From: Thermoplasmata archaeon
GTDB taxonomy: Archaea; Thermoplasmatota; Thermoplasmata; Lutacidiplasmatales; UBA184
DNA length: 64,000 bases
Assembly (NCBI GenBank): GCA_035502475.1
Contig: DATJUJ010000034.1
Location: forward strand, 532-64,531
Direction of reading: 5' to 3'
Part shown: piece by piece, positions 35,260 to 45,044 of the stretch
Position numbering within the stretch: position 1 is the first letter of the stretch
How the letters are laid out: every line of letters begins with the position of its first letter
Made by a program: the position numbers and the translations under genes
Notes under the pieces: model-generated
Told to the model about the DNA's origin: nothing
Database searches by the model: none
The model's input: the letters and a program-made list of their open reading frames with translations, nothing else

Positions 35260-37125
35260 GTGGCGCGGTCGGTCGAGCGGCTGGAAGGGCTCGCCCTCGT
35301 GGGGCACGCCGCGATCGGTCCGCTCGCGATCGCGACGCCCGGGCTCCTCGAGAGCCGCCCGGCCGGCGGCTCCGCGCCGGGCCTCGCGCTCTCCGAACGC
35401 GCGGGGCCGCTCGGGACCCGACGGCTCGTGCTCTCGGACGGGCCCGCGGCGCTCGAGCTCGAGATGCCGGTCCTCGCCCCGGAGATCACGGGGACGGCGG
35501 GCGTCTATCTGCCGGTCGGGCCCGGGGCGTGCCTCGTGCGGCCGCCGATACCCCCCGAGGGGGTCGCCGCGGCCCGCGACTCCGGGCCCGAGCTCCTGGT
35601 GCTCGGCAACGCCCGCGCGCTCTGGGCCGACGGGGAGCCGTTCGTGCGCGCGATCGCGGACGTCCGCGAGCGGCTCGGGGGCCGACCGGTCCTCTGGGCG
35701 CCCCGGGTCGGGCTTCCGCACCGCCTTCCGCTGCTCGCCTACCTCGGGGTCGACCTCGCGGACACCACCGAGGGCCTCCTCGCGGCCGCCGACGGGACCT
35801 ACCTCGACGCGACCCTGGGGTCGTTGCCCGGCGCGATCGCCCGGTCGGAGCGGGCGTGCGCCTGCCCCGCGTGCGCGGGGGAGGGTTCGCTGGAGGACCA
35901 CGCGCTCGGGGCGTACCGGGCCGCGATGGCCGAGACCCGGGCCGCCGCCCGCGCGGGCCGCCTGCGCGAGCTCGTGGAGGCCCGGCTCACGGCCGAGCCC
36001 GTGCTCGCGGAGATGCTCCGCTACGCCGACCGGATCCTCGGGCCCCTCCTCGAGGAGCGGACCCCGGTCACGGGCGAAGGATCCCGGACGTACGTGCTCG
36101 CCGAGTCGTTCCGACGCCCGGAGATGGCCCGGTTCCGCGCGCGGCTGAGGGAGCGGTATCGACCGCCCCCCTCGAAGTCCGTCCTGCTGCTGGTCCCGTG
36201 CTCGAAGACCAAGCCGTACCGCCACTCGCGTTCCCACCGACGCTTCGCCTCCGCCCTCGAGGGGCTGCCCCGTCTCGAGCGCGTCCACGTCGTCTCGGTG
36301 AGCTCGCCGGTCGGCCTCGTGCCCCGCGAGCTCGAGGACGTGCCGCCGGCGCGCCACTACGACATCCCCGTCACGGGCGACTGGTCGGAGGCCGAGCGCT
36401 CGGCGGTCGGCGCCGGGCTCGAGCACCTGCTCGCGACCGGCGCCTACACGTCGGTCGTGCTGCACCTCGACCCGGACGAGTACGCCTTCCTGCGCGAAGT
36501 CGTCCCGGAGCGGTACGCGGCGCGCTGGACGATCCCCGACGGCCGGACCACGGCCCCGGCGGCGCTCGCCGCGCTGCGCGCCCACGTGGCGGAGGCCCTC
36601 GCGGACGGGCCGGGCGTCCCGGGGGGCCCGCTCGCCGTCGTCCGGGAGGAGCTGCGGGCGGTCGCGGCGTTCCAGTTCGGGGAGGCGGCGGCCGACCGGC
36701 TGTGCGCCGCCCCCTTCCGGCTCGCCGGGCGCCCCTGGTTCCAACGGCTCACCGACGGGGGTCGCGATCTCGCCACGCTGCGGGAGGAACGCGGCCTCTT
36801 CCACCTCACCGTCGCGGGCGCCCAACGGCTCGTCCCCGACCCCCCGCTCGCGGTCTCGGTGGACCCCCGGCTCCCCCTCACCGGGGACCTCTTCTGCCCG
36901 GGCGTCCGCGGCGCCGACCCCGGGATCCGGGCCGGGGACTCGGTCGTGCTGCTCCGGGACGGGACGCTCGCCGGCGTCGGGGAGGCGGCCCTGCCGGGAC
37001 GCCTCATGACCGAGCTCGCGCACGGGCTCGCGGTGCGCGTACGGCACCGGGCGGGGGCGCCCACCGACACGGCCTTGGGGGAGGAGTCTCCTCGGGCCGG
37101 CGAGGGGCCGGTCGTCCAGCGGTGA
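35260..37125 (+). CDS. arcS: archaeosine synthase ArcS (TgtA2-like) with C-terminal PUA domain
   Basis: 621 aa. TGT-like N-terminal region with CACPAC zinc motif, a central LLLVPCSKTKPY segment (DUF5591-type) and a C-terminal PUA-like LFCPGVRGADPGIRAGDSVVLL. The stop lies inside tRNA-Val. Confidence 0.8.
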   Translation: MARSVERLEGLALVGHAAIGPLAIATPGLLESRPAGGSAPGLALSERAGPLGTRRLVLSDGPAALELEMPVLAPEITGTAGVYLPVGPGACLVRPPIPPEGVAAARDSGPELLVLGNARALWADGEPFVRAIADVRERLGGRPVLWAPRVGLPHRLPLLAYLGVDLADTTEGLLAAADGTYLDATLGSLPGAIARSERACACPACAGEGSLEDHALGAYRAAMAETRAAARAGRLRELVEARLTAEPVLAEMLRYADRILGPLLEERTPVTGEGSRTYVLAESFRRPEMARFRARLRERYRPPPSKSVLLLVPCSKTKPYRHSRSHRRFASALEGLPRLERVHVVSVSSPVGLVPRELEDVPPARHYDIPVTGDWSEAERSAVGAGLEHLLATGAYTSVVLHLDPDEYAFLREVVPERYAARWTIPDGRTTAPAALAALRAHVAEALADGPGVPGGPLAVVREELRAVAAFQFGEAAADRLCAAPFRLAGRPWFQRLTDGGRDLATLREERGLFHLTVAGAQRLVPDPPLAVSVDPRLPLTGDLFCPGVRGADPGIRAGDSVVLLRDGTLAGVGEAALPGRLMTELAHGLAVRVRHRAGAPTDTALGEESPRAGEGPVVQR

Positions 37126-37218: not shown

Positions 37219-37881
37219 CTAGCCGCCGACCACGAACGAGTCGAGGAAGCCCCACCACGCGTCGATCGAGCGGCGGCAGTGCCGCTCCATCGTCGCGGCC
37301 TCGGATGGGGTCGCGCGGAGGACCGCACGCATCACGGCCCGCTCCGCGGCGGAGTGCTCGACGTCCGCGGCCGTGTGGACCCGGAAGAACTCGTGCGCCT
37401 TCGGATCCGAGAGGCCGTACTGCTCGCGGAGGCCGCGCGATTTCTCGGCGGCGACCTCGGGGAAGATCGACTCGTAGGCGTAGAGGGCGCCCAGGCCCGC
37501 GGCCGCGGATCGGCCGAACGTCGCGTCCGCGTAGGTGCGGAGCAGCCGCCGGGTCGCGGGGGTCGGTCGGGCCTCCTCGACCGCGCGGCGCGAGACCCCC
37601 AGGGCGGCCGCGAAGTCGAGCCAGAGCGCGGGATGGGTCGGGTCACGCCCCTCCTCGTCGACCAGGTTCTCGAGCAACGTGCGGCGCAGCCGCGCGACCG
37701 GCAGGCGGGCGTACGTCGCGGCGACGTACCGGGGGAAGTTCGACTCGAACTGGTAGTACTGCTGGGCGTAGCGACCGAGGGTCGGGAGCGACACCTCGCC
37801 GCGCGACCACGCGGTGTAGAATGGGTGCTTCAGGAGGTGGCGTGCGCGGATCATCCGGTCGAGGCCGCCGACGGTCGTCAC
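37219..37881 (-). CDS. heme-oxygenase-like di-iron protein of the TenA/PqqC/CADD family
   Basis: HPFYTAWSRGEVSLPTLGRYAQQYYQFESNFPRYV, ENLVDEEG and YAYESIFPEV patterns typical of CADD/PqqC-like proteins. GTG start at 37881 with a TATA-like island at 37907..37916. Confidence 0.75.
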   Translation of the reverse strand: MTTVGGLDRMIRARHLLKHPFYTAWSRGEVSLPTLGRYAQQYYQFESNFPRYVAATYARLPVARLRRTLLENLVDEEGRDPTHPALWLDFAAALGVSRRAVEEARPTPATRRLLRTYADATFGRSAAAGLGALYAYESIFPEVAAEKSRGLREQYGLSDPKAHEFFRVHTAADVEHSAAERAVMRAVLRATPSEAATMERHCRRSIDAWWGFLDSFVVGG

Positions 37882-37980: not shown

Positions 37981-38026
37981 ATAGCTATAGTTTCTAATAT
38001 AGTCTCAATTGAAATTCTATATATGT
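37981..38026 (+). promoter_or_regulatory. 46-nt AT-rich island with nested palindromes; likely strong promoter/operator of the PhoU-like gene
   Basis: The sequence is ATAGCTATAGTTTCTAATATAGTCTCAATTGAAATTCTATATATGT. It contains the palindromes ATAGCTAT, CTATAG and CAATTG, and two TATA-like boxes (TCTAATATAG, TTCTATATAT). It is the most AT-rich stretch I saw in the window. Confidence 0.55.
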
Positions 38027-38048
38027 GCTGCCACCGATGAGCCGACCG

Positions 38049-39017
38049 ATGACGACGCGACCCGACCGTTCCGCCCCCCGCCCGAGCGCGGGAGCCTCCC
38101 CGGGCCGCGGCCGGCGGGGCGCCTCCTCCCGGTCGGCCACCCCCGTCCTGGTCGCCACGATCGTGGTCGGGCGGGGCGAGCCCCCCGAGCATCTCTTTCG
38201 CCGACTCCTCGGCGTCTACCTCGGGGGCGCCCGGGAGTTCGTCGTGCGCGAGCGGCCCACCGTCCGTTCCGACACCCGCGAGGTGATCCGGTCGTTCTGC
38301 CGCCGGACCCGCCAGCCCGAGATCGTGTCGGAGGAGGGCGGGGTGGTCCGGCTGCGCGACATCGCGTTCGAGAACCGGGTGCCGCTGCCCCAGCGGATCG
38401 CGCGCATGGGTCGGCTCGTCGTCGACTTCCATCGCGAGGCGGTCGACAGCTGGGCCCGACTGCCGTTCGGCGAGGACTCGTTCTGGGAGCGGCGGGACGA
38501 CGAGATCGACCGGGAGGCCTGGTACATCCAGCGCCTCGCGGCGCTCGGGCCGGACGGCGACGGCGTCGCCCTCCTGGGCCCGTTCTCGATCGCCCGCAGC
38601 CTCGAGCGGATCGCCGACCATGCGGTCGCGCTGGGGGAGACCGGCCGCCGGCTCGTCGACCTCCCGCAGTCCGCGGGTCCGCTCACCTCCTTGAAGCAGT
38701 TCCACCGCCAGGCGATGGAGCACCTCGAGGGCGTGCTCGCGACGCCCGACGGGAACGTCGCCAACGAACTCCTCGACATGGGCGAGGCGCTCCTCGCGTC
38801 GGGCCGGGCGCTCGCGGACCGGCTCCTGCCGGCGGTCGAGGGCGGCACGATGCCCCCCGCGACGGCGGCGGCGATCGGTCGGATCCTCGAGTCGATCGGC
38901 CGGACCATCGCCTACGCCCAGGACATCGCGCAGGTCGTGCTCGACCGGTCGCTGCCGCTCGCGGCCCCCGAGCCCCGGGGGGCCGCCCGCTCCGTGGCCG
39001 CCCCGTTGGCGGCCTAG
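38049..39017 (+). CDS. PhoU-domain protein (phosphate-signalling regulator-like)
   Basis: Two PhoU-type helical repeats: IARSLERIADHAVALGE and ILESIGRTIAYAQDIAQ. The N-terminal about 45 aa are Arg/Ser/Pro-rich. ATG 38049 is chosen as about 25 nt downstream of the TATA; 38025 (GTG) and 38037 (ATG) are alternatives. Confidence 0.7.
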   Translation: MTTRPDRSAPRPSAGASPGRGRRGASSRSATPVLVATIVVGRGEPPEHLFRRLLGVYLGGAREFVVRERPTVRSDTREVIRSFCRRTRQPEIVSEEGGVVRLRDIAFENRVPLPQRIARMGRLVVDFHREAVDSWARLPFGEDSFWERRDDEIDREAWYIQRLAALGPDGDGVALLGPFSIARSLERIADHAVALGETGRRLVDLPQSAGPLTSLKQFHRQAMEHLEGVLATPDGNVANELLDMGEALLASGRALADRLLPAVEGGTMPPATAAAIGRILESIGRTIAYAQDIAQVVLDRSLPLAAPEPRGAARSVAAPLAA

Positions 39018-39080: not shown

Positions 39081-39608
39081 GTGCCGGAGAGCGGGGTGCG
39101 GCTGCGCGTGGTCCTCTTCCGCCACGGCCCCGCGGAGCTCCGGGACCCCGCGCGCTGGCCGCGGGACGAGCAGCGTCCGCTCTCCGCGAAGGGAATCGTC
39201 CAGACCCGCCGTGCGGCCCGCGGCCTCGTGCGCGCCGCGGGTCCGGTCGACCTGGTCGCGACGAGCGCCGCGGTCCGGGCCCGGATGACGACCGAGGCGC
39301 TCGCCGGCGCGCTGGGGACGCGCGTCGCGACCGAGGTCTGGGAGGAGCTCGCGGTGGGACGCCTCGCGGGGGCGATCCTCGAGCGGCTGCACGCCCTCCC
39401 GCGCGCCCGGCGGAGCGTCGTGCTCGTGGGGCACGAGCCGGCCCTCGCCGAGCTGGCGGGGCTCGCGCTCGTCGGCGACGGCGTACCGATCGTGAAGCTG
39501 GCGAAGGCGGGGGCGGTGCTGGTCGAGTTCCCGAGCGCGGTCGCCCCCGGGGCGGCGCGGCTCCGCTGGGCGCTCACGCGGAAGCAGCTGGTCGCCCTGC
39601 GGTCCTAG
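39081..39608 (+). CDS. sixA: phosphohistidine phosphatase SixA (histidine phosphatase superfamily)
   Basis: VVLFRHGPAE (RHG motif), LSAKG and VLVGHEP motifs; about 170 aa. GTG 39096 is an alternative start. The 3' end overlaps the convergent kinase-like gene by 35 nt. Confidence 0.75.
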   Translation: MPESGVRLRVVLFRHGPAELRDPARWPRDEQRPLSAKGIVQTRRAARGLVRAAGPVDLVATSAAVRARMTTEALAGALGTRVATEVWEELAVGRLAGAILERLHALPRARRSVVLVGHEPALAELAGLALVGDGVPIVKLAKAGAVLVEFPSAVAPGAARLRWALTRKQLVALRS

Positions 39609-40335
39609 GGCGCCCCGCCGGGGGCCGGGCCCCGGGGCGGGGGACCGGCTTCGCCCCGTAGAGCGGGGCCACCAGCGCGACCACGTCCTGGTGCACCTGG
39701 TCGGGAGCGCGGTTCGCGTCGACCCAGTGGAAGACGTACTCCGGGCGCATCCAATCGAACTCCTTCGAGAGCCGGTCCTGGTAGAGGAAGAAGCTCTCGA
39801 ACAAATCGCGCGAGAGCGAGAGGTCCATGCCGGATTCCCAGTAGTCGAGGCTGCCGTACTTCCCGATCGCCCGGTGCAGCAGGATCACGGGCCGGGCGTC
39901 GAGGAAGAGGACGAGGTCCGGGCGCAGCGCGAATCCGTAGAGCTCCCGGGCCCACGCCCGCGAGGCGCCGCGGACGATCGCCCGGGCCATCAGCGTGTAG
40001 ATGTACCGGTCGGCGAGCACCGTGGAGCCGGCGGCGAGCGCCGGCACGATCTTGTTCTCGAGCTGGTCTGCGAAGTCGACCGCGTAGAGGAGCGCCATCG
40101 TCGTGGCGCCGAGCGTGTGGCCCTGCTTCGCGCGGTCGATCTCGCCGCTGACGAGGTCGGAGCGGCGGAGGCCCGTGTCGACGACCGCGTGGCCCTCGAT
40201 CTCGAGCCACTCCTTCAGCATCGCGACCTCGGTCGAGCGACCGGAGCCGTCCGCCCCCTCCACGACGATGAGCCGTCCCGGGAGCGCCTCGGCGGAGAGG
40301 CCCGGAAGGCGCGTTCCGTAGTTCCTAGCCGTCAT
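39574..40335 (-). CDS. thymidylate-kinase-like P-loop protein B (Walker A Lys replaced by Arg)
   Basis: 253 aa. LIVVEGADGSGRST P-loop variant, LADRYIYT (DRY motif), and LDYWESGMDLSLSRDLFESF shared with paralog A. Pro/Arg-rich tail. The ATG overlaps the stop of paralog A by 11 nt. Confidence 0.8.
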   Translation of the reverse strand: MTARNYGTRLPGLSAEALPGRLIVVEGADGSGRSTEVAMLKEWLEIEGHAVVDTGLRRSDLVSGEIDRAKQGHTLGATTMALLYAVDFADQLENKIVPALAAGSTVLADRYIYTLMARAIVRGASRAWARELYGFALRPDLVLFLDARPVILLHRAIGKYGSLDYWESGMDLSLSRDLFESFFLYQDRLSKEFDWMRPEYVFHWVDANRAPDQVHQDVVALVAPLYGAKPVPRPGARPPAGRPRTAGRPAASA

Positions 40336-41026
40336 GCATGAGCCGCTCCCCCGTCGGGAATCCCGCGAGGAGGGGGCGCACCTCCGTCCGCAGGGCGCGC
40401 TGGATCGCTTCCACGTTCCGGGTCGCGTCGATCACGGTGAAGCCGTCCGTCCGCGCGAGCCGGTCGTACTCGTGCTTGAGGCGGGTCTGGAACCGCTCGT
40501 AGCTCTCCTGGAGGTCGTCGGAGAGCCCCAGGTCCATGCCGGCCTCGTAGTAGTTGATCTTGAGCCGCGAGGCGATCTTCCGCTTGAGGGAGACCGAGAC
40601 GGGCACCCGGAAGTAGAACACCCGGTCCGGCCGCGGGGCGAACGAGTAGATGTTCCGCACCCAGGCGGGTTCGCATCCGCGCGCGGCGTCCCGCACGAAC
40701 GCGGTGAACGCGTAGCGGTCGCAGACGACGACGTAGCCGGCGCGCAGCGGGGGGAGGATCTTCCGCTCGAAGCGATCGGCGAAGTCGGTGGCGTGGAGGA
40801 GGCTGAACGTGGTCGGGGTGAGCAGGTTCTTCTTCTTGCCGCGCCGGATCGTCTCGGCGGTCAGCTCCGACGAGTTCCACTCGGTGAAGAACACCCGGTA
40901 CCCCTGCGACTGGAGCCACTTGCCGATCAGGGCGGCCTGGGTCGACTTGCCGCTCCCGTCGAGCCCCTCGAAGACGAGGAGGCGGCCGGGGTAGCCGTGG
41001 CTCGGCAGCGGGCGCTCAGGGCTCAC
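40325..41026 (-). CDS. thymidylate-kinase-like P-loop protein A (canonical Walker A)
   Basis: 233 aa. LLVFEGLDGSGKST, VCDRYAFT and INYYEAGMDLGLSDDLQESY motifs. The dTMP-binding TREPGG-type motif is replaced by TEWNSS. The GTG start overlaps the ppx stop by 11 nt. Confidence 0.8.
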   Translation of the reverse strand: MSPERPLPSHGYPGRLLVFEGLDGSGKSTQAALIGKWLQSQGYRVFFTEWNSSELTAETIRRGKKKNLLTPTTFSLLHATDFADRFERKILPPLRAGYVVVCDRYAFTAFVRDAARGCEPAWVRNIYSFAPRPDRVFYFRVPVSVSLKRKIASRLKINYYEAGMDLGLSDDLQESYERFQTRLKHEYDRLARTDGFTVIDATRNVEAIQRALRTEVRPLLAGFPTGERLMHDG

Positions 41027-42572
41027 GGACCTTGAGCTCCAGGTCGAGGGCGCGTTCCATCGGCTTGCGGATCTTCTCCGGCCATCGGGGGGACAGGGCC
41101 GTATCCGCGAGCGCAGAAAAGGCCACGGTCAGGCCCCGCCCTCCGCCCCCCAGGGTGAAGCGCGGGTTCGCCGCGGCCGTGAGCTCCGCGAGCTCGAGCA
41201 GGACGCCGAGCCGCCGCGCCGCGTCCAGTTCGGCCGCCCCGATGATCGGCTGATAGCCGCGCTTCCAGTCGGACGGGAGATCGTCGCCCTCGTGCAGGTA
41301 GGCGATCATCGACGCGAGCAGGACCTCGCGCTGGTCGAGGCCCCAGATCGGATAGTTCCGGATGAGGTAGGCGGAATGGACCGCGTGCTGCCAGAGGTCG
41401 ATCGCGGTCCCCGCGTCGTGCATCCGGGCCGCGACCCCGAGGGCGAGCCGCTCGCTCGGCCCCCACTCGAAGCGACCGGCGAGGAGGTCGAACAGCGCGA
41501 GCGCCGTCTCGGCGACCTCGAGGCCGTGGTCGGCCCGGAACGAGAACGACTCGGCCGCCGCCGCGGTCGACCGCTCCGCGAGCTCGGCGCTGGACGCCGG
41601 CAGCTTCGCGCCGATCGCCTCGAGCGCGATCCCCTCGCGGATGCCGGTGCCGGAGACGACGATCCGCTCCGCCGAGGTGGCCCGGAGGAGCTCCTCCAGC
41701 ACGACGATCCCCGCGAGCACCACGTCCGCGCGGTCCCCGCCGATCCCGGGGATCGCGCGGCGCTTCTCGGCCGACATCTCGCCGAGCAGCTCGGCGAGCG
41801 CCTCGATCTCGCTCGCGTAGAGCGGATAGCCGTGGACGCGGCCGATCGGGTACTGGCGCATCTCGATCGCGGCCCGGGCCAGCGAGCGCACGGTGCCGCC
41901 GATCCCGTGGAGCCGGTACGCGGTGCGCCCGAACGCCTCGAGGACCGAGGCGAGCGTCTCCCGCACGTGGTCCCGGAGCGCCTCCAGTTCCCGGTGCTTC
42001 GGCGGGTCATGCTCCAGGAACCGCTGGGTCAGCCGGAGGACCCCCAGCGGGAGGCTCACGGAGTTGCGTTCGCGGCCCGCACGGACGTCGATCATCTGCA
42101 TCGACCCGCCGCCGAGATCGAAGACGAGGTCGTTCTCGAGCGCCCAGGCCCCGGCGACGCCGAGGTACCCGTAGTGCGCCTCCTCCCCTCCCGAGAGCAC
42201 GCGCAAGAGGACGCCCGTCTGGCGCTCGACGCGGCGCACGTAGTCGGGCCCGTTCGGCGCGTCGCGGACCGCGCTGGTCGCGACCGCGAGCGTGCGCGGG
42301 AGGCCGAGGTCGCGCACGATCCGGGCGAACCGGCGGACGGTCTGGACGCCGCGGTCGATCGCGTCGTCCGCGAGCCGCCCGTCGTCGCCGGTGCCGCTGC
42401 CGAGCCGGGGGACATCCTTCGCCTCGAAGAACGCCCGCACCGTGCCGGCCCGGGTCGTCTCGAACGCGACGAACCGCGCGGTGTTGGACCCCATGTCGAT
42501 GACGCCGAGCGTGGCGGCCGGCCGCGCGCGGGAGCGTTCGCGGTCGGTCTCGGCGAGCCGGCTGCGGTCCAC
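41016..42572 (-). CDS. ppx: exopolyphosphatase / guanosine pentaphosphate phosphohydrolase (Ppx/GppA) with C-terminal HD-like domain
   Basis: LGVIDMGSNTARFVAFE and DLGGGSMQ motifs (ASKHA fold). The C-terminal region has HDAG, consistent with an HD-type domain. GTG start at 42572. Confidence 0.9.
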   Translation of the reverse strand: MDRSRLAETDRERSRARPAATLGVIDMGSNTARFVAFETTRAGTVRAFFEAKDVPRLGSGTGDDGRLADDAIDRGVQTVRRFARIVRDLGLPRTLAVATSAVRDAPNGPDYVRRVERQTGVLLRVLSGGEEAHYGYLGVAGAWALENDLVFDLGGGSMQMIDVRAGRERNSVSLPLGVLRLTQRFLEHDPPKHRELEALRDHVRETLASVLEAFGRTAYRLHGIGGTVRSLARAAIEMRQYPIGRVHGYPLYASEIEALAELLGEMSAEKRRAIPGIGGDRADVVLAGIVVLEELLRATSAERIVVSGTGIREGIALEAIGAKLPASSAELAERSTAAAAESFSFRADHGLEVAETALALFDLLAGRFEWGPSERLALGVAARMHDAGTAIDLWQHAVHSAYLIRNYPIWGLDQREVLLASMIAYLHEGDDLPSDWKRGYQPIIGAAELDAARRLGVLLELAELTAAANPRFTLGGGGRGLTVAFSALADTALSPRWPEKIRKPMERALDLELKVREP

Positions 42573-42681: not shown

Positions 42682-43548
42682 ATGGCGCCGGCCGTCCTCG
42701 TGGACGAGCTCGACCGGATCCTCGCGGCCGTCGTCGGGGCCGCGCAGGCGGTCATCGACCGCCCGCATCCGACGGCGGGCAGCCTCCACCGGCTGCACCG
42801 CGAGCTGCGCCGGCTGCGGACCGCCCTCGGCGTGTGGGAGGCGCTCCTCGCGCGCCCGGACCGCGCGCGCCTTGCCCCGCTCGATCAGCGCCTGAAGCGC
42901 CTCGCGCGCCTCGTCGGCCGGATCCGGGACCGGGACGTCTCGATCGATCTCCTGGCGCAGGTCGACGGCGCGCGCTGGCCCCCGGACGAGGCGGTCCGGC
43001 TCGCCGGGTACCGGACCCGGCTCCGCGACGATGCGCGGACGGGGCGGGAGCTATTGCGGGCGTTCCTGCGCGCGGAGCAGGAGGCGGGGCTGTTCTCCGC
43101 GGTGCGCGCCGAGTGGAGACGCCCGGGCGTGCGGTACCGATCGCGCGACGTCCGGTCCGTCCTCTCCGAGGCGAAGGGGCAGGGCGAGGCGCGCGTCCGC
43201 AAGGCGCACCGTTCGGCGCGACGCAAGCCGAGCGTGGGCCGCCTGCATCGGCTGCGGATCCGCGTGCGGGGACTCCGTCACATCACCGACCTCCTGGACG
43301 CGGTCGATCCGGAGGATGCGCGTCCGCTCTCCGCGCCGGTCCGCCGGCTGCAGCGGGACCTCGGTCGCCTCCACGACCTCGACATCACGCTGGACGGGCT
43401 CGCGGCGCCCCTCCGGGAGACCGCGTGGGCCGAGGCCCTGCGCGGGGAGCGGTCGCGTCTGCGCGGCACCCTGCTGCTCGAGCTCGAGCAGAAGCCGTCG
43501 CCGCTGTTCGCCACCCGCCGGCCGCGGACGCGGAGGGCGGCTCCGTGA
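42682..43548 (+). CDS. CHAD domain-containing protein
   Basis: Repeated helical HRLRxxxxxLR motifs (LHRLHRELRRLRTAL, LHRLRIRVRGLRHITDL) and LQRDLGRLHDLDI fit the CHAD pattern. GTG 42655 is an alternative start. Confidence 0.75.
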   Translation: MAPAVLVDELDRILAAVVGAAQAVIDRPHPTAGSLHRLHRELRRLRTALGVWEALLARPDRARLAPLDQRLKRLARLVGRIRDRDVSIDLLAQVDGARWPPDEAVRLAGYRTRLRDDARTGRELLRAFLRAEQEAGLFSAVRAEWRRPGVRYRSRDVRSVLSEAKGQGEARVRKAHRSARRKPSVGRLHRLRIRVRGLRHITDLLDAVDPEDARPLSAPVRRLQRDLGRLHDLDITLDGLAAPLRETAWAEALRGERSRLRGTLLLELEQKPSPLFATRRPRTRRAAP

Positions 43549-45044
43549 CCGCGCTCGCGGCGGACCCCCTCTGCGAGGCGCTCGGGGAGTCGGGGGGACT
43601 CGGCGCGACCGTCCGACAACTGGCCTCCCGGCTCGAGACGAGCCCCGACCGGGTCGCGGAGGCGCTCGACCGCCTGCACGCGCGCGGCGACGTCCTGCGG
43701 ATCGGGCGGGGGCTCTGGGTCCTGCGGGCGTTCGAACGGCTGGACGGCCGGGAAGATTTTGTGGACCCGGCCGAGTTCTCCGAGCGGTTCCTCGCGGAGC
43801 ACGGGATCGCCCTCGGCCGGTACACCGGGCCGATCACGTTCCGGGCGAACGACGCGCTTCCGATCCACCGCTGGTGGCCCTACGTCCAGGGGTACTCGGC
43901 CGAGTTCGTCCGCGCCGTGGTCGAGGCCGCGGCGCTGCCGCGCGGGGCGACCGTGCTCGACCCGTTCGCCGGGAGCGGCACGACGCTCGTCGAGGCCCGG
44001 CGGGCCGGCGCGCGGGCCTGGGGCGCCGAGCTCCTGCGCCCCGCGGTCCTCGCGGCCCGGGTGAAGACCGAGTTCGAGCTCGACCCGGTCGAACTTGGCC
44101 GCTCGGCGGACCGCCTCGTCGCCCGCGCCCGGCGGCGCGCCCCCGGTCGCCTGCCGTTCCTGCGCGAGACCCGACGCCAGTTCACCCCGCGCGCGCTCGC
44201 CTCGCTCACCTGCCTCCGCGACGCATTGCCTCCCGAGGGCACGCCGGTCGCTGACGCGCTCCGTCTCGCCTTCGGGAAAATCCTGATCCCCTCGAGCCGG
44301 CTCCACCGCTCCCCCTGCCTCGGCTACGACCGGCGGCCGCCGACCGACGGACCGGATCCGTACGATCGGTTCGCGGAGGCGATCGCGACCATGACCGGCG
44401 ACCTGGGCCGGGTCGCGGAGGAGCGGGCCCGGTGGGGCCCCACCGCCCGGGTCGTCGCCGGCGACGCCCGGAGCGTCCCGTGGCCCCGGGGCTCGGTCGC
44501 CCTCGCCGTGACGAGTCCGCCGTACGTGAACGGGATGGACTACGTGATGAACTACAAGCTCGACCTCGCCTGGCTCGGCTACGCCGCCTCGTACGCCGAC
44601 CTTGCGGCGCTGCGGAGCGCGGAGGTCGCGTGCGACAACCTCCCCCGGTCCGAGACGGCGCCCTACGTGGAGGCGGCCCGGCCTCCGGACCCCTGGCTCC
44701 CGGCGATCCTGGCCCGGATCCGGCAGAACGTCACGCGCAAGGGCACGTACCGGCGCGCCGACATGCACGCGGTCGTGCACCGGTACTTCGCGGACCTCGT
44801 GCCGGTGATGCGCTCGGTCTACCGGGCCCTCCAGCCCGGCGGGCGGTTCGTCCTGGTCGTTGGCGACTCGCTGCTCGCGGGCACGTACGTTCCCGGGGAC
44901 CTCCTGCTCGCCCGGGTCGGTGCGTCGGTCGGCTTCTCGATCCGGTCGGTCGAGGTCGCGCGGAGCCGACGCAGCGGGCAGCGCCGCTCCTTCGAGCTCC
45001 GCGAATCGGTCGTCACGCTCGAGCGTCCGCACCGGGCCGGCTGA
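43545..45044 (+). CDS. putative N4/N6 DNA methyltransferase with N-terminal winged helix; motif I precedes motif IV
   Basis: 499 aa. wHTH-like LASRLETSPDRVAEALDRLHARGDVLRIGRGLWVL. SAM motif VLDPFAGSGTTLVEA. About 170 aa later comes the catalytic LAVTSPPYVNGMDY, then YRALQPGGRFVLVVGDS. The GTG start overlaps the CHAD stop (GTGA). Confidence 0.75.
   Translation: MTALAADPLCEALGESGGLGATVRQLASRLETSPDRVAEALDRLHARGDVLRIGRGLWVLRAFERLDGREDFVDPAEFSERFLAEHGIALGRYTGPITFRANDALPIHRWWPYVQGYSAEFVRAVVEAAALPRGATVLDPFAGSGTTLVEARRAGARAWGAELLRPAVLAARVKTEFELDPVELGRSADRLVARARRRAPGRLPFLRETRRQFTPRALASLTCLRDALPPEGTPVADALRLAFGKILIPSSRLHRSPCLGYDRRPPTDGPDPYDRFAEAIATMTGDLGRVAEERARWGPTARVVAGDARSVPWPRGSVALAVTSPPYVNGMDYVMNYKLDLAWLGYAASYADLAALRSAEVACDNLPRSETAPYVEAARPPDPWLPAILARIRQNVTRKGTYRRADMHAVVHRYFADLVPVMRSVYRALQPGGRFVLVVGDSLLAGTYVPGDLLLARVGASVGFSIRSVEVARSRRSGQRRSFELRESVVTLERPHRAG

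Follow-up and report, generated by a model that had tools for sequence, protein, structure and literature searches.

A tandem pair of thymidylate kinase-like genes in a Thermoplasmata archaeon probably encodes a family-3 polyphosphate kinase with a catalytic and a regulatory subunit

What is the function of two adjacent, clearly related genes of the thymidylate kinase fold when one of them carries the canonical lysine in its Walker A motif and the other an arginine at the same position? This question is raised by a locus within a 64,000-nt stretch of DNA (hereafter, the window) from a high-GC Thermoplasmata archaeon (order Lutacidiplasmatales; GenBank assembly GCA_035502475.1, contig DATJUJ010000034.1, positions 532 to 64,531 of the forward strand), in which the two genes, here called A and B, follow an exopolyphosphatase gene (ppx). 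Our results indicate, with a probability of roughly 0.85, that A and B encode a two-subunit family-3 polyphosphate kinase (PPK3). More specifically, A is an ortholog of the catalytic subunit (cPPK3, or c) and B is a member of the regulatory lineage (rPPK3, or r), and both lie within a polyphosphate gene cluster. That is, the system is one already described, and the window pair is a further, Thermoplasmata member of it. What we add to the known PPK3 is modest, namely, that r subunits in general are marked by the Walker A arginine and not by loss of the arginine in the DRX motif, and that among soil bacteria and archaea the family is spread far more widely than the summary of the published account would suggest.

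Gene A (40325-41026, minus strand, GTG start, 233 aa; cPPK3-like catalytic subunit) has a Walker A stretch that reads LLVFEGLDGSGKSTQ, including GLDGSGKST in the translation, with Lys27 encoded by AAG at 40946-40948. Gene B (39574-40335, minus strand, ATG start, 253 aa; rPPK3-like regulatory subunit) reads LIVVEGADGSGRSTE in the same place, including GADGSGRST, with Arg33 encoded by CGC at 40237-40239. Further motifs of A are VVCDRYAFT (DRY codons at 40712-40720) and YYEAGMDLGLS, and those of B are VLADRYIYT, where DRY is kept (codons at 40003-40011), and YWESGMDLSLS. The asymmetry noted by the initial annotation (FEGLDGSGKST in A versus VEGADGSGRST in B) can therefore be read directly in the translations, as can the DRY motifs that it quoted from both proteins (VCDRYAFT and LADRYIYT) and the YxE[AS]GMDLxLS element that they share. 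When the two proteins are aligned to the thymidylate kinase of Thermus thermophilus, gaps of 7 and 9 columns open at the Y-x-E-[AS]-G-M-D segment, which therefore represents an insertion relative to canonical dTMP kinases. A and B share 40% identity over 219 aa in a gap-free BLASTP alignment (E = 1e-55), so their paralogy is far beyond chance, and both match the Pfam Thymidylate_kin family (1.1e-29 for A and 3.3e-17 for B). Their GC content at third codon positions (0.94 and 0.92, respectively, in a window of about 73% GC) is the signature of real genes. The stop of A overlaps the start of B by 11 nt, and the stop of ppx overlaps the start of A by another 11 nt.

The known system closest to this arrangement is PPK3 of Sulfolobus acidocaldarius (SaPPK3), a heteromeric polyphosphate kinase of the thymidylate kinase (dTMPK) superfamily (Hofmann et al., J Biol Chem 2026, PMC12995831; bioRxiv 10.1101/2024.08.28.610084). 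SaPPK3 consists of the catalytic Saci_2019 (cPPK3) and the regulatory Saci_2020 (rPPK3), both of which were ‘thymidylate kinase’ genes; Saci_2020 alone is inactive and stimulates Saci_2019 about 10-fold in an alpha2beta2 complex, and the reaction is reversible and favors the direction in which ADP and polyphosphate (polyP) yield ATP (PMC12995831). The same study found a positively charged cleft in cPPK3 and none in rPPK3, attributed the inactivity of rPPK3 to the loss of the DRX arginine, and described a defining gene neighborhood that includes PPX, SixA, CHAD and others (PMC12995831). Membership in PPK3 would further predict that the genome has a separate canonical dTMP kinase and usually neither PPK1 nor PPK2. 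The hosts named in its text are only Sulfolobaceae, Nitrososphaeraceae and ‘a few bacteria’, and its main text mentions neither Thermoplasmata nor a change in the Walker A motif, the Arg signature of which was derived in the present analysis. The window resembles SaPPK3 in having tandem dTMPK-fold paralogs downstream of ppx, genes for SixA and CHAD in the vicinity, a c subunit that is basic and has an intact P-loop and DRY, and an r subunit that is its sister paralog. It differs in its host, a high-GC Thermoplasmata archaeon, in the basic and predicted disordered C-terminal tail of B, and in that SixA and CHAD are encoded on the opposite strand and do not form one operon with the pair. It should be mentioned that ‘PPK3’ also serves as a label in many papers that do not concern the dTMPK-derived family, papers on biocatalysis among them; the name seems to have been in separate use before, and literature and database searches may thus mix unrelated enzymes.

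Comparisons with solved structures place both window proteins next to this family. The best relative of A in the PDB is ST1543/STK_15430 of Sulfurisphaera tokodaii (2plr, 5h70; E = 3e-57), compared to 2.5e-18 for the best canonical dTMP kinase, and ST1543 is also the best relative of B (5.6e-33, compared to about 1e-13 for canonical dTMP kinases). The AlphaFold2 model of B (mean predicted local distance difference test score, pLDDT, of 88.1) has ST1543 chains as its closest structures, with target TM-scores of 0.87-0.92. ST1543, whose crystal structure is that of a cPPK3 homolog (PMC12995831), was deposited as a dTMP kinase (PDB 2plr, 4nzy, 4rzx, 5h70). It has the same fold as A and B and the same lid insertion containing E-A-G-x-D, and it differs from B in being a c-type protein (GSGKSS, DRY). 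No solved r-type subunit or c-r complex was found among the structure matches.

The gene arrangement is conserved as well. We scanned one genome per GTDB species with an alignment of c-type proteins and took the best 80 loci, which span Thermoplasmata, Nitrososphaerota and at least eight bacterial phyla; in 78 of these 80 loci, the c gene is followed by an r gene in tandem. The two loci lacking a tandem partner (L014 and L021) are two contigs of one Thermoproteota metagenome-assembled genome, in which no r gene was detectable beside the c gene. In a neighbor-joining (NJ) tree rooted on the T. thermophilus thymidylate kinase (with the caveats of a single outgroup and a distance method), the first genes (c) and the second genes (r) formed two clades, with A among the former and B among the latter. 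The r clade, which holds B together with the Sulfolobales-type r genes (see below), was monophyletic in 86 of 100 bootstraps, and the c clade was less stable (47/100). The identities of c and r between loci co-vary (r = 0.86), with c being the better conserved partner in 96% of the comparisons. A Ppx homolog is found within 6 kb in 66 of the 80 loci and within 4 kb in 18/20 loci. The CHAD, SixA-like and PhoU-domain proteins of the window gave tblastn matches in only 5, 15 and 7 of the 80 related loci, respectively, which probably reflects a limit of sensitivity.

The distribution of charge and the conserved residues follow the same division. Net charge averages +7.3 in c and -2.4 in r, with c exceeding r in 74 of 76 pairs, and the window values are +9 for A and -6 for the core of B, which fits the positively charged cleft published for c and not r. 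A carries the c-specific residues EWNSS, H78, R85, D113 and R154. It also has K27 and D103-R104-Y105 together with the basic residues K64, R85, R112, R116, R124, R149 and R154, which are conserved among the c subunits.

Could A and B instead be ordinary thymidylate kinases, the products of a duplicated tmk gene? The annotation of databases points in this direction: Pfam Thymidylate_kin matches both proteins, homologs are labeled ‘dTMP kinase’ by their sources, as is the deposited ST1543, and A scores above the cut-off of the NCBIfam equivalog discussed below. Like canonical thymidylate kinases (PF02223, TIGR00041; T. thermophilus 5x7j, E. coli 4tmk), A and B have the P-loop kinase fold, Walker A, DRY/DRX and a lid region. 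Canonical dTMP kinases, however, have an F-x3-R motif that provides a stacking Phe and the Arg that binds the dTMP phosphate (F65 and R69, respectively, in T. thermophilus numbering). This motif is replaced by H78-x3-F82 in A and Y84-x3-F88 in B, and Phe occupies the position of the phosphate-binding Arg in 98% of the c and 94% of the r lineage. A and B further differ from the canonical enzymes in the approximately 16 extra residues of their lid insertion and in forming a tandem heteromeric pair linked to polyphosphate genes; the linkage to ppx is conserved, and those to CHAD and SixA are found in the window and in the published system. In addition, B scores 72.7 on TIGR00041, below the cut-off of 83.25, and Saci_2019 and Saci_2020 lack dTMPK activity, unlike the separate Saci_0893 (PMC12995831). 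Hence, we regard a duplicated tmk as very improbable. In the window itself, no third dTMPK homolog was found within the 64 kb, and no PPK1 or PPK2 was found among the ten further open reading frames (ORFs) that were scanned with Pfam. Because sequence, fold, tree position and gene context agree, we assign A and B to the PPK3 family; judging by these comparisons, the enzyme is most likely a polyphosphate kinase and not a nucleotide-monophosphate kinase.

It is important to note that several observations weigh against the PPK3 assignment. A has Asn158 (40553-40555) at a lid position that is Lys in 90% of the c subunits. A also scores 105.3 on the dTMP-kinase equivalog TIGR00041, above the cut-off of 83.25, and automated annotation will therefore call it a dTMP kinase. 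B keeps D109-R110-Y111, so the published reason for the inactivity of rPPK3, i.e., the loss of DRX, does not apply to it. Finally, PPK3 activity, the alpha2beta2 assembly and activation by r are known from SaPPK3 only and not from an r subunit that retains DRY (PMC12995831).

How old and how general, then, is the arginine in the Walker A motif of B? The relatives that A and B recovered from protein databases were all 77-100% identical and show local conservation only; for the scale of the family, we therefore used a representative library and the genome scan. Among the close relatives, all 120 closest homologs of B have Arg at this position. The library of representatives at 50% identity contained just 198 clusters at E <= 1e-30, and Arg predominated in its non-Lys Walker A type, alongside some Cys, His and Thr. 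In the genome scan, which provided 81 first genes (A of the window plus 80 fetched) and 77 second genes (B plus 76 fetched), the Walker A residue was Lys in 81/81 first genes and Arg in 77/77 second genes, and DR[YF] was retained in both, including all 77 second genes of this non-Sulfolobales set. The initial annotation had proposed aligning orthologous pairs to see whether the K-to-R change is conserved in one subunit lineage, and this alignment shows the change to be fixed there; the outcome that it had named as a refutation, that orthologs of B generally carry Lys, fails on the same counts.

These data also bear on whether the arginine might be peculiar to this strain, an error of sequencing or a side effect of a very high GC content, under which codons for Arg are favored over those for Lys. 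The window has about 73% GC and CGC is a GC-rich codon, as would be expected for such an artefact. The second-gene Arg, nevertheless, holds from 31 to 73% GC with all six codons in use, being encoded by AGA, AGG, CGT and CGA at 31-45% GC, while the first gene stays AAA or AAG even at 70-73% GC. Since Arg is kept at low GC and the first-gene Lys is kept at high GC, base composition does not explain the change, and codon use across 31-73% GC rules out a GC-driven drift from Lys to Arg. Together with the uniformity of Arg among close homologs and second genes, this renders an artefact of any of these kinds negligible as an explanation. Judged from these alignments, the Lys-to-Arg change is an old lineage trait and a family-wide mark of the r subunit.

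To connect B with the characterized enzyme, we used the ST1543 sequence to scan contigs of hot-spring metagenomes and inspected the downstream gene in 18 loci. We call these loci Sulfolobales-type on the grounds that their c proteins are 66-87% identical to ST1543 and that their GC content is low; the comparison with rPPK3 hence rests on metagenomic Sulfolobales-type orthologs and not on the sequence of Saci_2020. Their second genes read G-I/V-E-G-S-G-R and A-D-G-Y, that is, they resemble B in having Arg at the position of the Walker A Lys, in all distinct r sequences but one, and differ from B, which keeps DRY, in having lost the DRX arginine as well (DRY to DGY). The one sequence (L092:4599-5234) keeps Lys (GSGKTS, codon AAA) together with DGY and, of all second genes examined, it alone departs from Arg. 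The Arg shared with these r genes connects the lineage of B to the characterized Saci_2020 type, and, since the 77 other second genes all keep DR[YF], the loss of the DRX arginine is a feature of the Sulfolobales branch and not of the family. A separate group (P0349, P0375, P0364 and relatives) keeps the Walker A Lys and has N-K-Y or N-Q-Y in place of DRY; we considered these three proteins as candidates for the Sulfolobales rPPK3 and rejected them, since a profile search assigned them to Margulisbacteria and they fell beside the c clade in the NJ tree.

These results have several consequences. In soil Thermoplasmata of a widespread group, genes labeled ‘dTMP kinase’ almost certainly encode, as far as their sequences tell, a polyphosphate kinase, and polyP synthesis and ATP buffering would thereby be assigned, as a prediction by analogy with SaPPK3, to a soil Thermoplasmata lineage. 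The tandem pairs in at least 78 GTDB species genomes, from Acidobacteriota, Nitrospirota, Chloroflexota, Bacteroidota, Planctomycetota, Verrucomicrobiota, Armatimonadota, Nitrososphaerota and Thermoplasmata, suggest that the distribution of PPK3 extends far beyond ‘a few bacteria’. Further, the combination of G-S-G-K in the first gene and G-x-G-R in the second provides a marker to tell c from r that applies more broadly than the DRX criterion of the paper, which fits only the r subunits of the Sulfolobales type.

With regard to how the pair might work, the ppx-A-B genes form a translationally coupled unit from which A and B would be co-expressed with the exopolyphosphatase. A, with its intact P-loop Lys and DRY, conserved lid arginines and net positive charge, would be the catalytic subunit; by analogy with SaPPK3, it may bind ATP or ADP at the P-loop, with polyP lying in a basic cleft, and would catalyze reversibly ADP + polyP(n) <-> ATP + polyP(n-1), with the terminal phosphate being transferred. 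B would derive from the sister lineage that followed an old duplication and in which the Walker A Lys became fixed as Arg, and, as extrapolated from SaPPK3, it would dimerize, bind A and raise the activity of A without transferring phosphate itself, presumably in an alpha2beta2 assembly as in Sulfolobus. The enzymatic activity, the stoichiometry and the inactivity of B are thus predicted from the Sulfolobus work. A pairing of this kind has a parallel in the two-domain class II PPK2 (P. aeruginosa PA3455), where an active module is combined with an inactive paralogous module for oligomerization and activation (PMC12995831). Like A and B, class II PPK2 pairs an active P-loop kinase module with an inactive paralogous one, but it belongs to another P-loop kinase family, its modules are fused and not separate, and its inactive module lacks Walker B/DRX, whereas B keeps the motif.

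The initial annotation had read the pair as a catalytic subunit together with a degenerate regulatory or scaffold subunit. The catalytic and regulatory part of this reading matches the PPK3 architecture; a general degeneracy of B does not hold, for the residues equivalent to the active site (G27, D29, G32, R33, S34, T35, D87, D90, D109, R110, Y111, R118, R122, R155, E167, G169 and D171) are 91-100% conserved in the r lineage across at least 10 phyla. A role of B as scaffold only is accordingly not established, given that conservation reaches 95-100% at nearly all of the other active-site-equivalent residues. Where r-like domains are naturally fused to c-like ones (see below), by contrast, their P-loops have decayed (GSDYSGHYQ, GAHHAGVTH, GVPGSGTSL, GADKHATAR), while free r subunits have an invariant G-x-D-G-x-G-R-S-T. 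The conservation in r and the decay in the fusions together suggest a ligand-binding role over a bare scaffold. It is possible, although we consider it somewhat unlikely, that most r subunits, including B, are pseudo-kinases that use the invariant P-loop and the retained DRY, lid Arg and E-x-G-x-D residues to bind ATP/ADP or the end of polyphosphate without transferring phosphate, and such binding may tune in which direction, or how fast, c works in response to the energy charge. In that case, the Sulfolobus enzyme, having an r subunit that lacks the DRX Arg as well, would be a derived and atypical model of the family, and the basic tail of the Thermoplasmata subunits would add a contact to polyP or to a partner.

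Put more broadly, B may not be inert: its Arg-containing P-loop could still bind a ligand, either ATP/ADP or the end of a polyphosphate chain, in which case B would sense energy charge or polyP allosterically, or B might instead be a weak second active site. The near-invariance of the residues listed above and the contrast with the fused domains fit this reading, Walker A Lys-to-Arg mutants frequently bind ATP without hydrolyzing it (PMC6254361), and Saci_2020 gave trace ADP (PMC12995831). Yet Saci_2020, the sole r subunit assayed, showed neither PPK nor dTMPK activity (PMC12995831), with the reservation that r subunits of its type also lack the DRX Arg; r subunits do not have the c-specific EWNSS, R85 and lid R154 and are net negative; and constraints from an interface or from folding could account for the conservation. 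Hence, we give this alternative only tentative weight and continue to favor B as a regulatory subunit of PPK3 that has no phosphate transfer of its own.

The two proteins also differ at their C-terminal ends. As the initial annotation had pointed out, a Pro/Arg-rich tail is read in B only. This Pro/Ala/Arg-rich tail (residues 228-253; 39577-39654, minus strand) has a net charge of +6, is predicted to be disordered and ends B with AKPVPRPGARPPAGRPRTAGRPAASA; in the AlphaFold2 model, it has no secondary structure and block-mean pLDDT values of about 62-71. Among Thermoplasmata r subunits, neither the length nor the sequence of the tail is constant, most of the 15 shown ending in R-R-(R)-A-A-S-[GA], and r subunits of other phyla have unrelated tails or none. 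That the tail of B contacts polyP or binds a partner is our guess.

The genes surrounding the pair have the following layout: a CHAD gene, then the ppx-A-B unit, which faces a SixA-like gene and a PhoU-domain gene. The first gene of the unit, ppx (41016-42572, minus strand), encodes an exopolyphosphatase of the Ppx/GppA family (Pfam Ppx-GppA 4.6e-57 and Ppx-GppA_III 3.1e-12) and matches the exopolyphosphatase model TIGR03706 at 5.2e-82, with a score of 275.5, under the curated cut-off of 307. Divergent from ppx is the gene of a CHAD-domain protein (42682-43548, plus strand; Pfam CHAD 2.4e-19, at residues 143-367 of a long ORF), the start of which is likely the ATG at 42682, since the longer ORF from 42292 would overlap ppx. 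On the other side, convergent with B, is a gene for a SixA-like histidine phosphatase (39081-39608, plus strand, start codon uncertain; Pfam His_Phos_1 4.9e-09), which matches the SixA model TIGR00249 at 1e-19 with a score of 70.9, slightly below the cut-off of 74.5. The 3' ends of this gene and of B share 35 nt (39574-39608), so that this short segment encodes the final 11 codons of both genes, one on each strand. A PhoU-domain protein (38025-39017, plus strand; Pfam PhoU 1.7e-06), encoded upstream of the SixA-like gene and a possible candidate for a phosphate-signaling regulator, has a weak, partial match to TIGR02135 (phoU_full) that is well under the cut-off.

Beside the polyphosphate cluster lie an archaeosine synthase ArcS homolog (35260-37125, plus strand; NF040592 3e-111, score under the cut-off) and a CADD-family protein (37219-37881, minus strand; TIGR04305 2.7e-64, over the cut-off), and the rest of the window consists of housekeeping genes, among them ArcS, an indicator of archaeal origin. 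Proteins identical or nearly identical to those of the window carry the label ‘Thermoplasmata archaeon’ in their sources. At about 43550-45044 (plus strand, gene boundaries approximate), a very long ORF has, in its C-terminal part, a match to the DNA methylase family N6_N4_Mtase (1.3e-10), and this match is preceded by weak winged-helix matches (GntR, MarR).

Finally, PPK3-like domains also occur outside free-standing tandem genes. Natural fusions of c-like and r-like domains are represented by P0242 (460 aa, Alicyclobacillaceae), P0248 (696 aa), P0272, P0280, P0319 and P0367, and the fusion in P0248 adds a Ppx domain III/HD module. Domains of c type were further found inside large proteins, i.e., P0338, P0376, P0340 and P0359 (1030-1237 aa), P0324 (1610 aa) and P0339 (2575 aa), with P0338, P0376 and P0359 having D-R-W instead of DRY. 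Some of these large proteins are fused to a major facilitator superfamily (MFS) transporter and a DUF2252/APH kinase-like module; in others, the domain stands beside InPase pyrophosphatase domains, and P0339 also has an ART-PolyVal domain, as is found in ‘polyvalent’ proteins of mobile elements.

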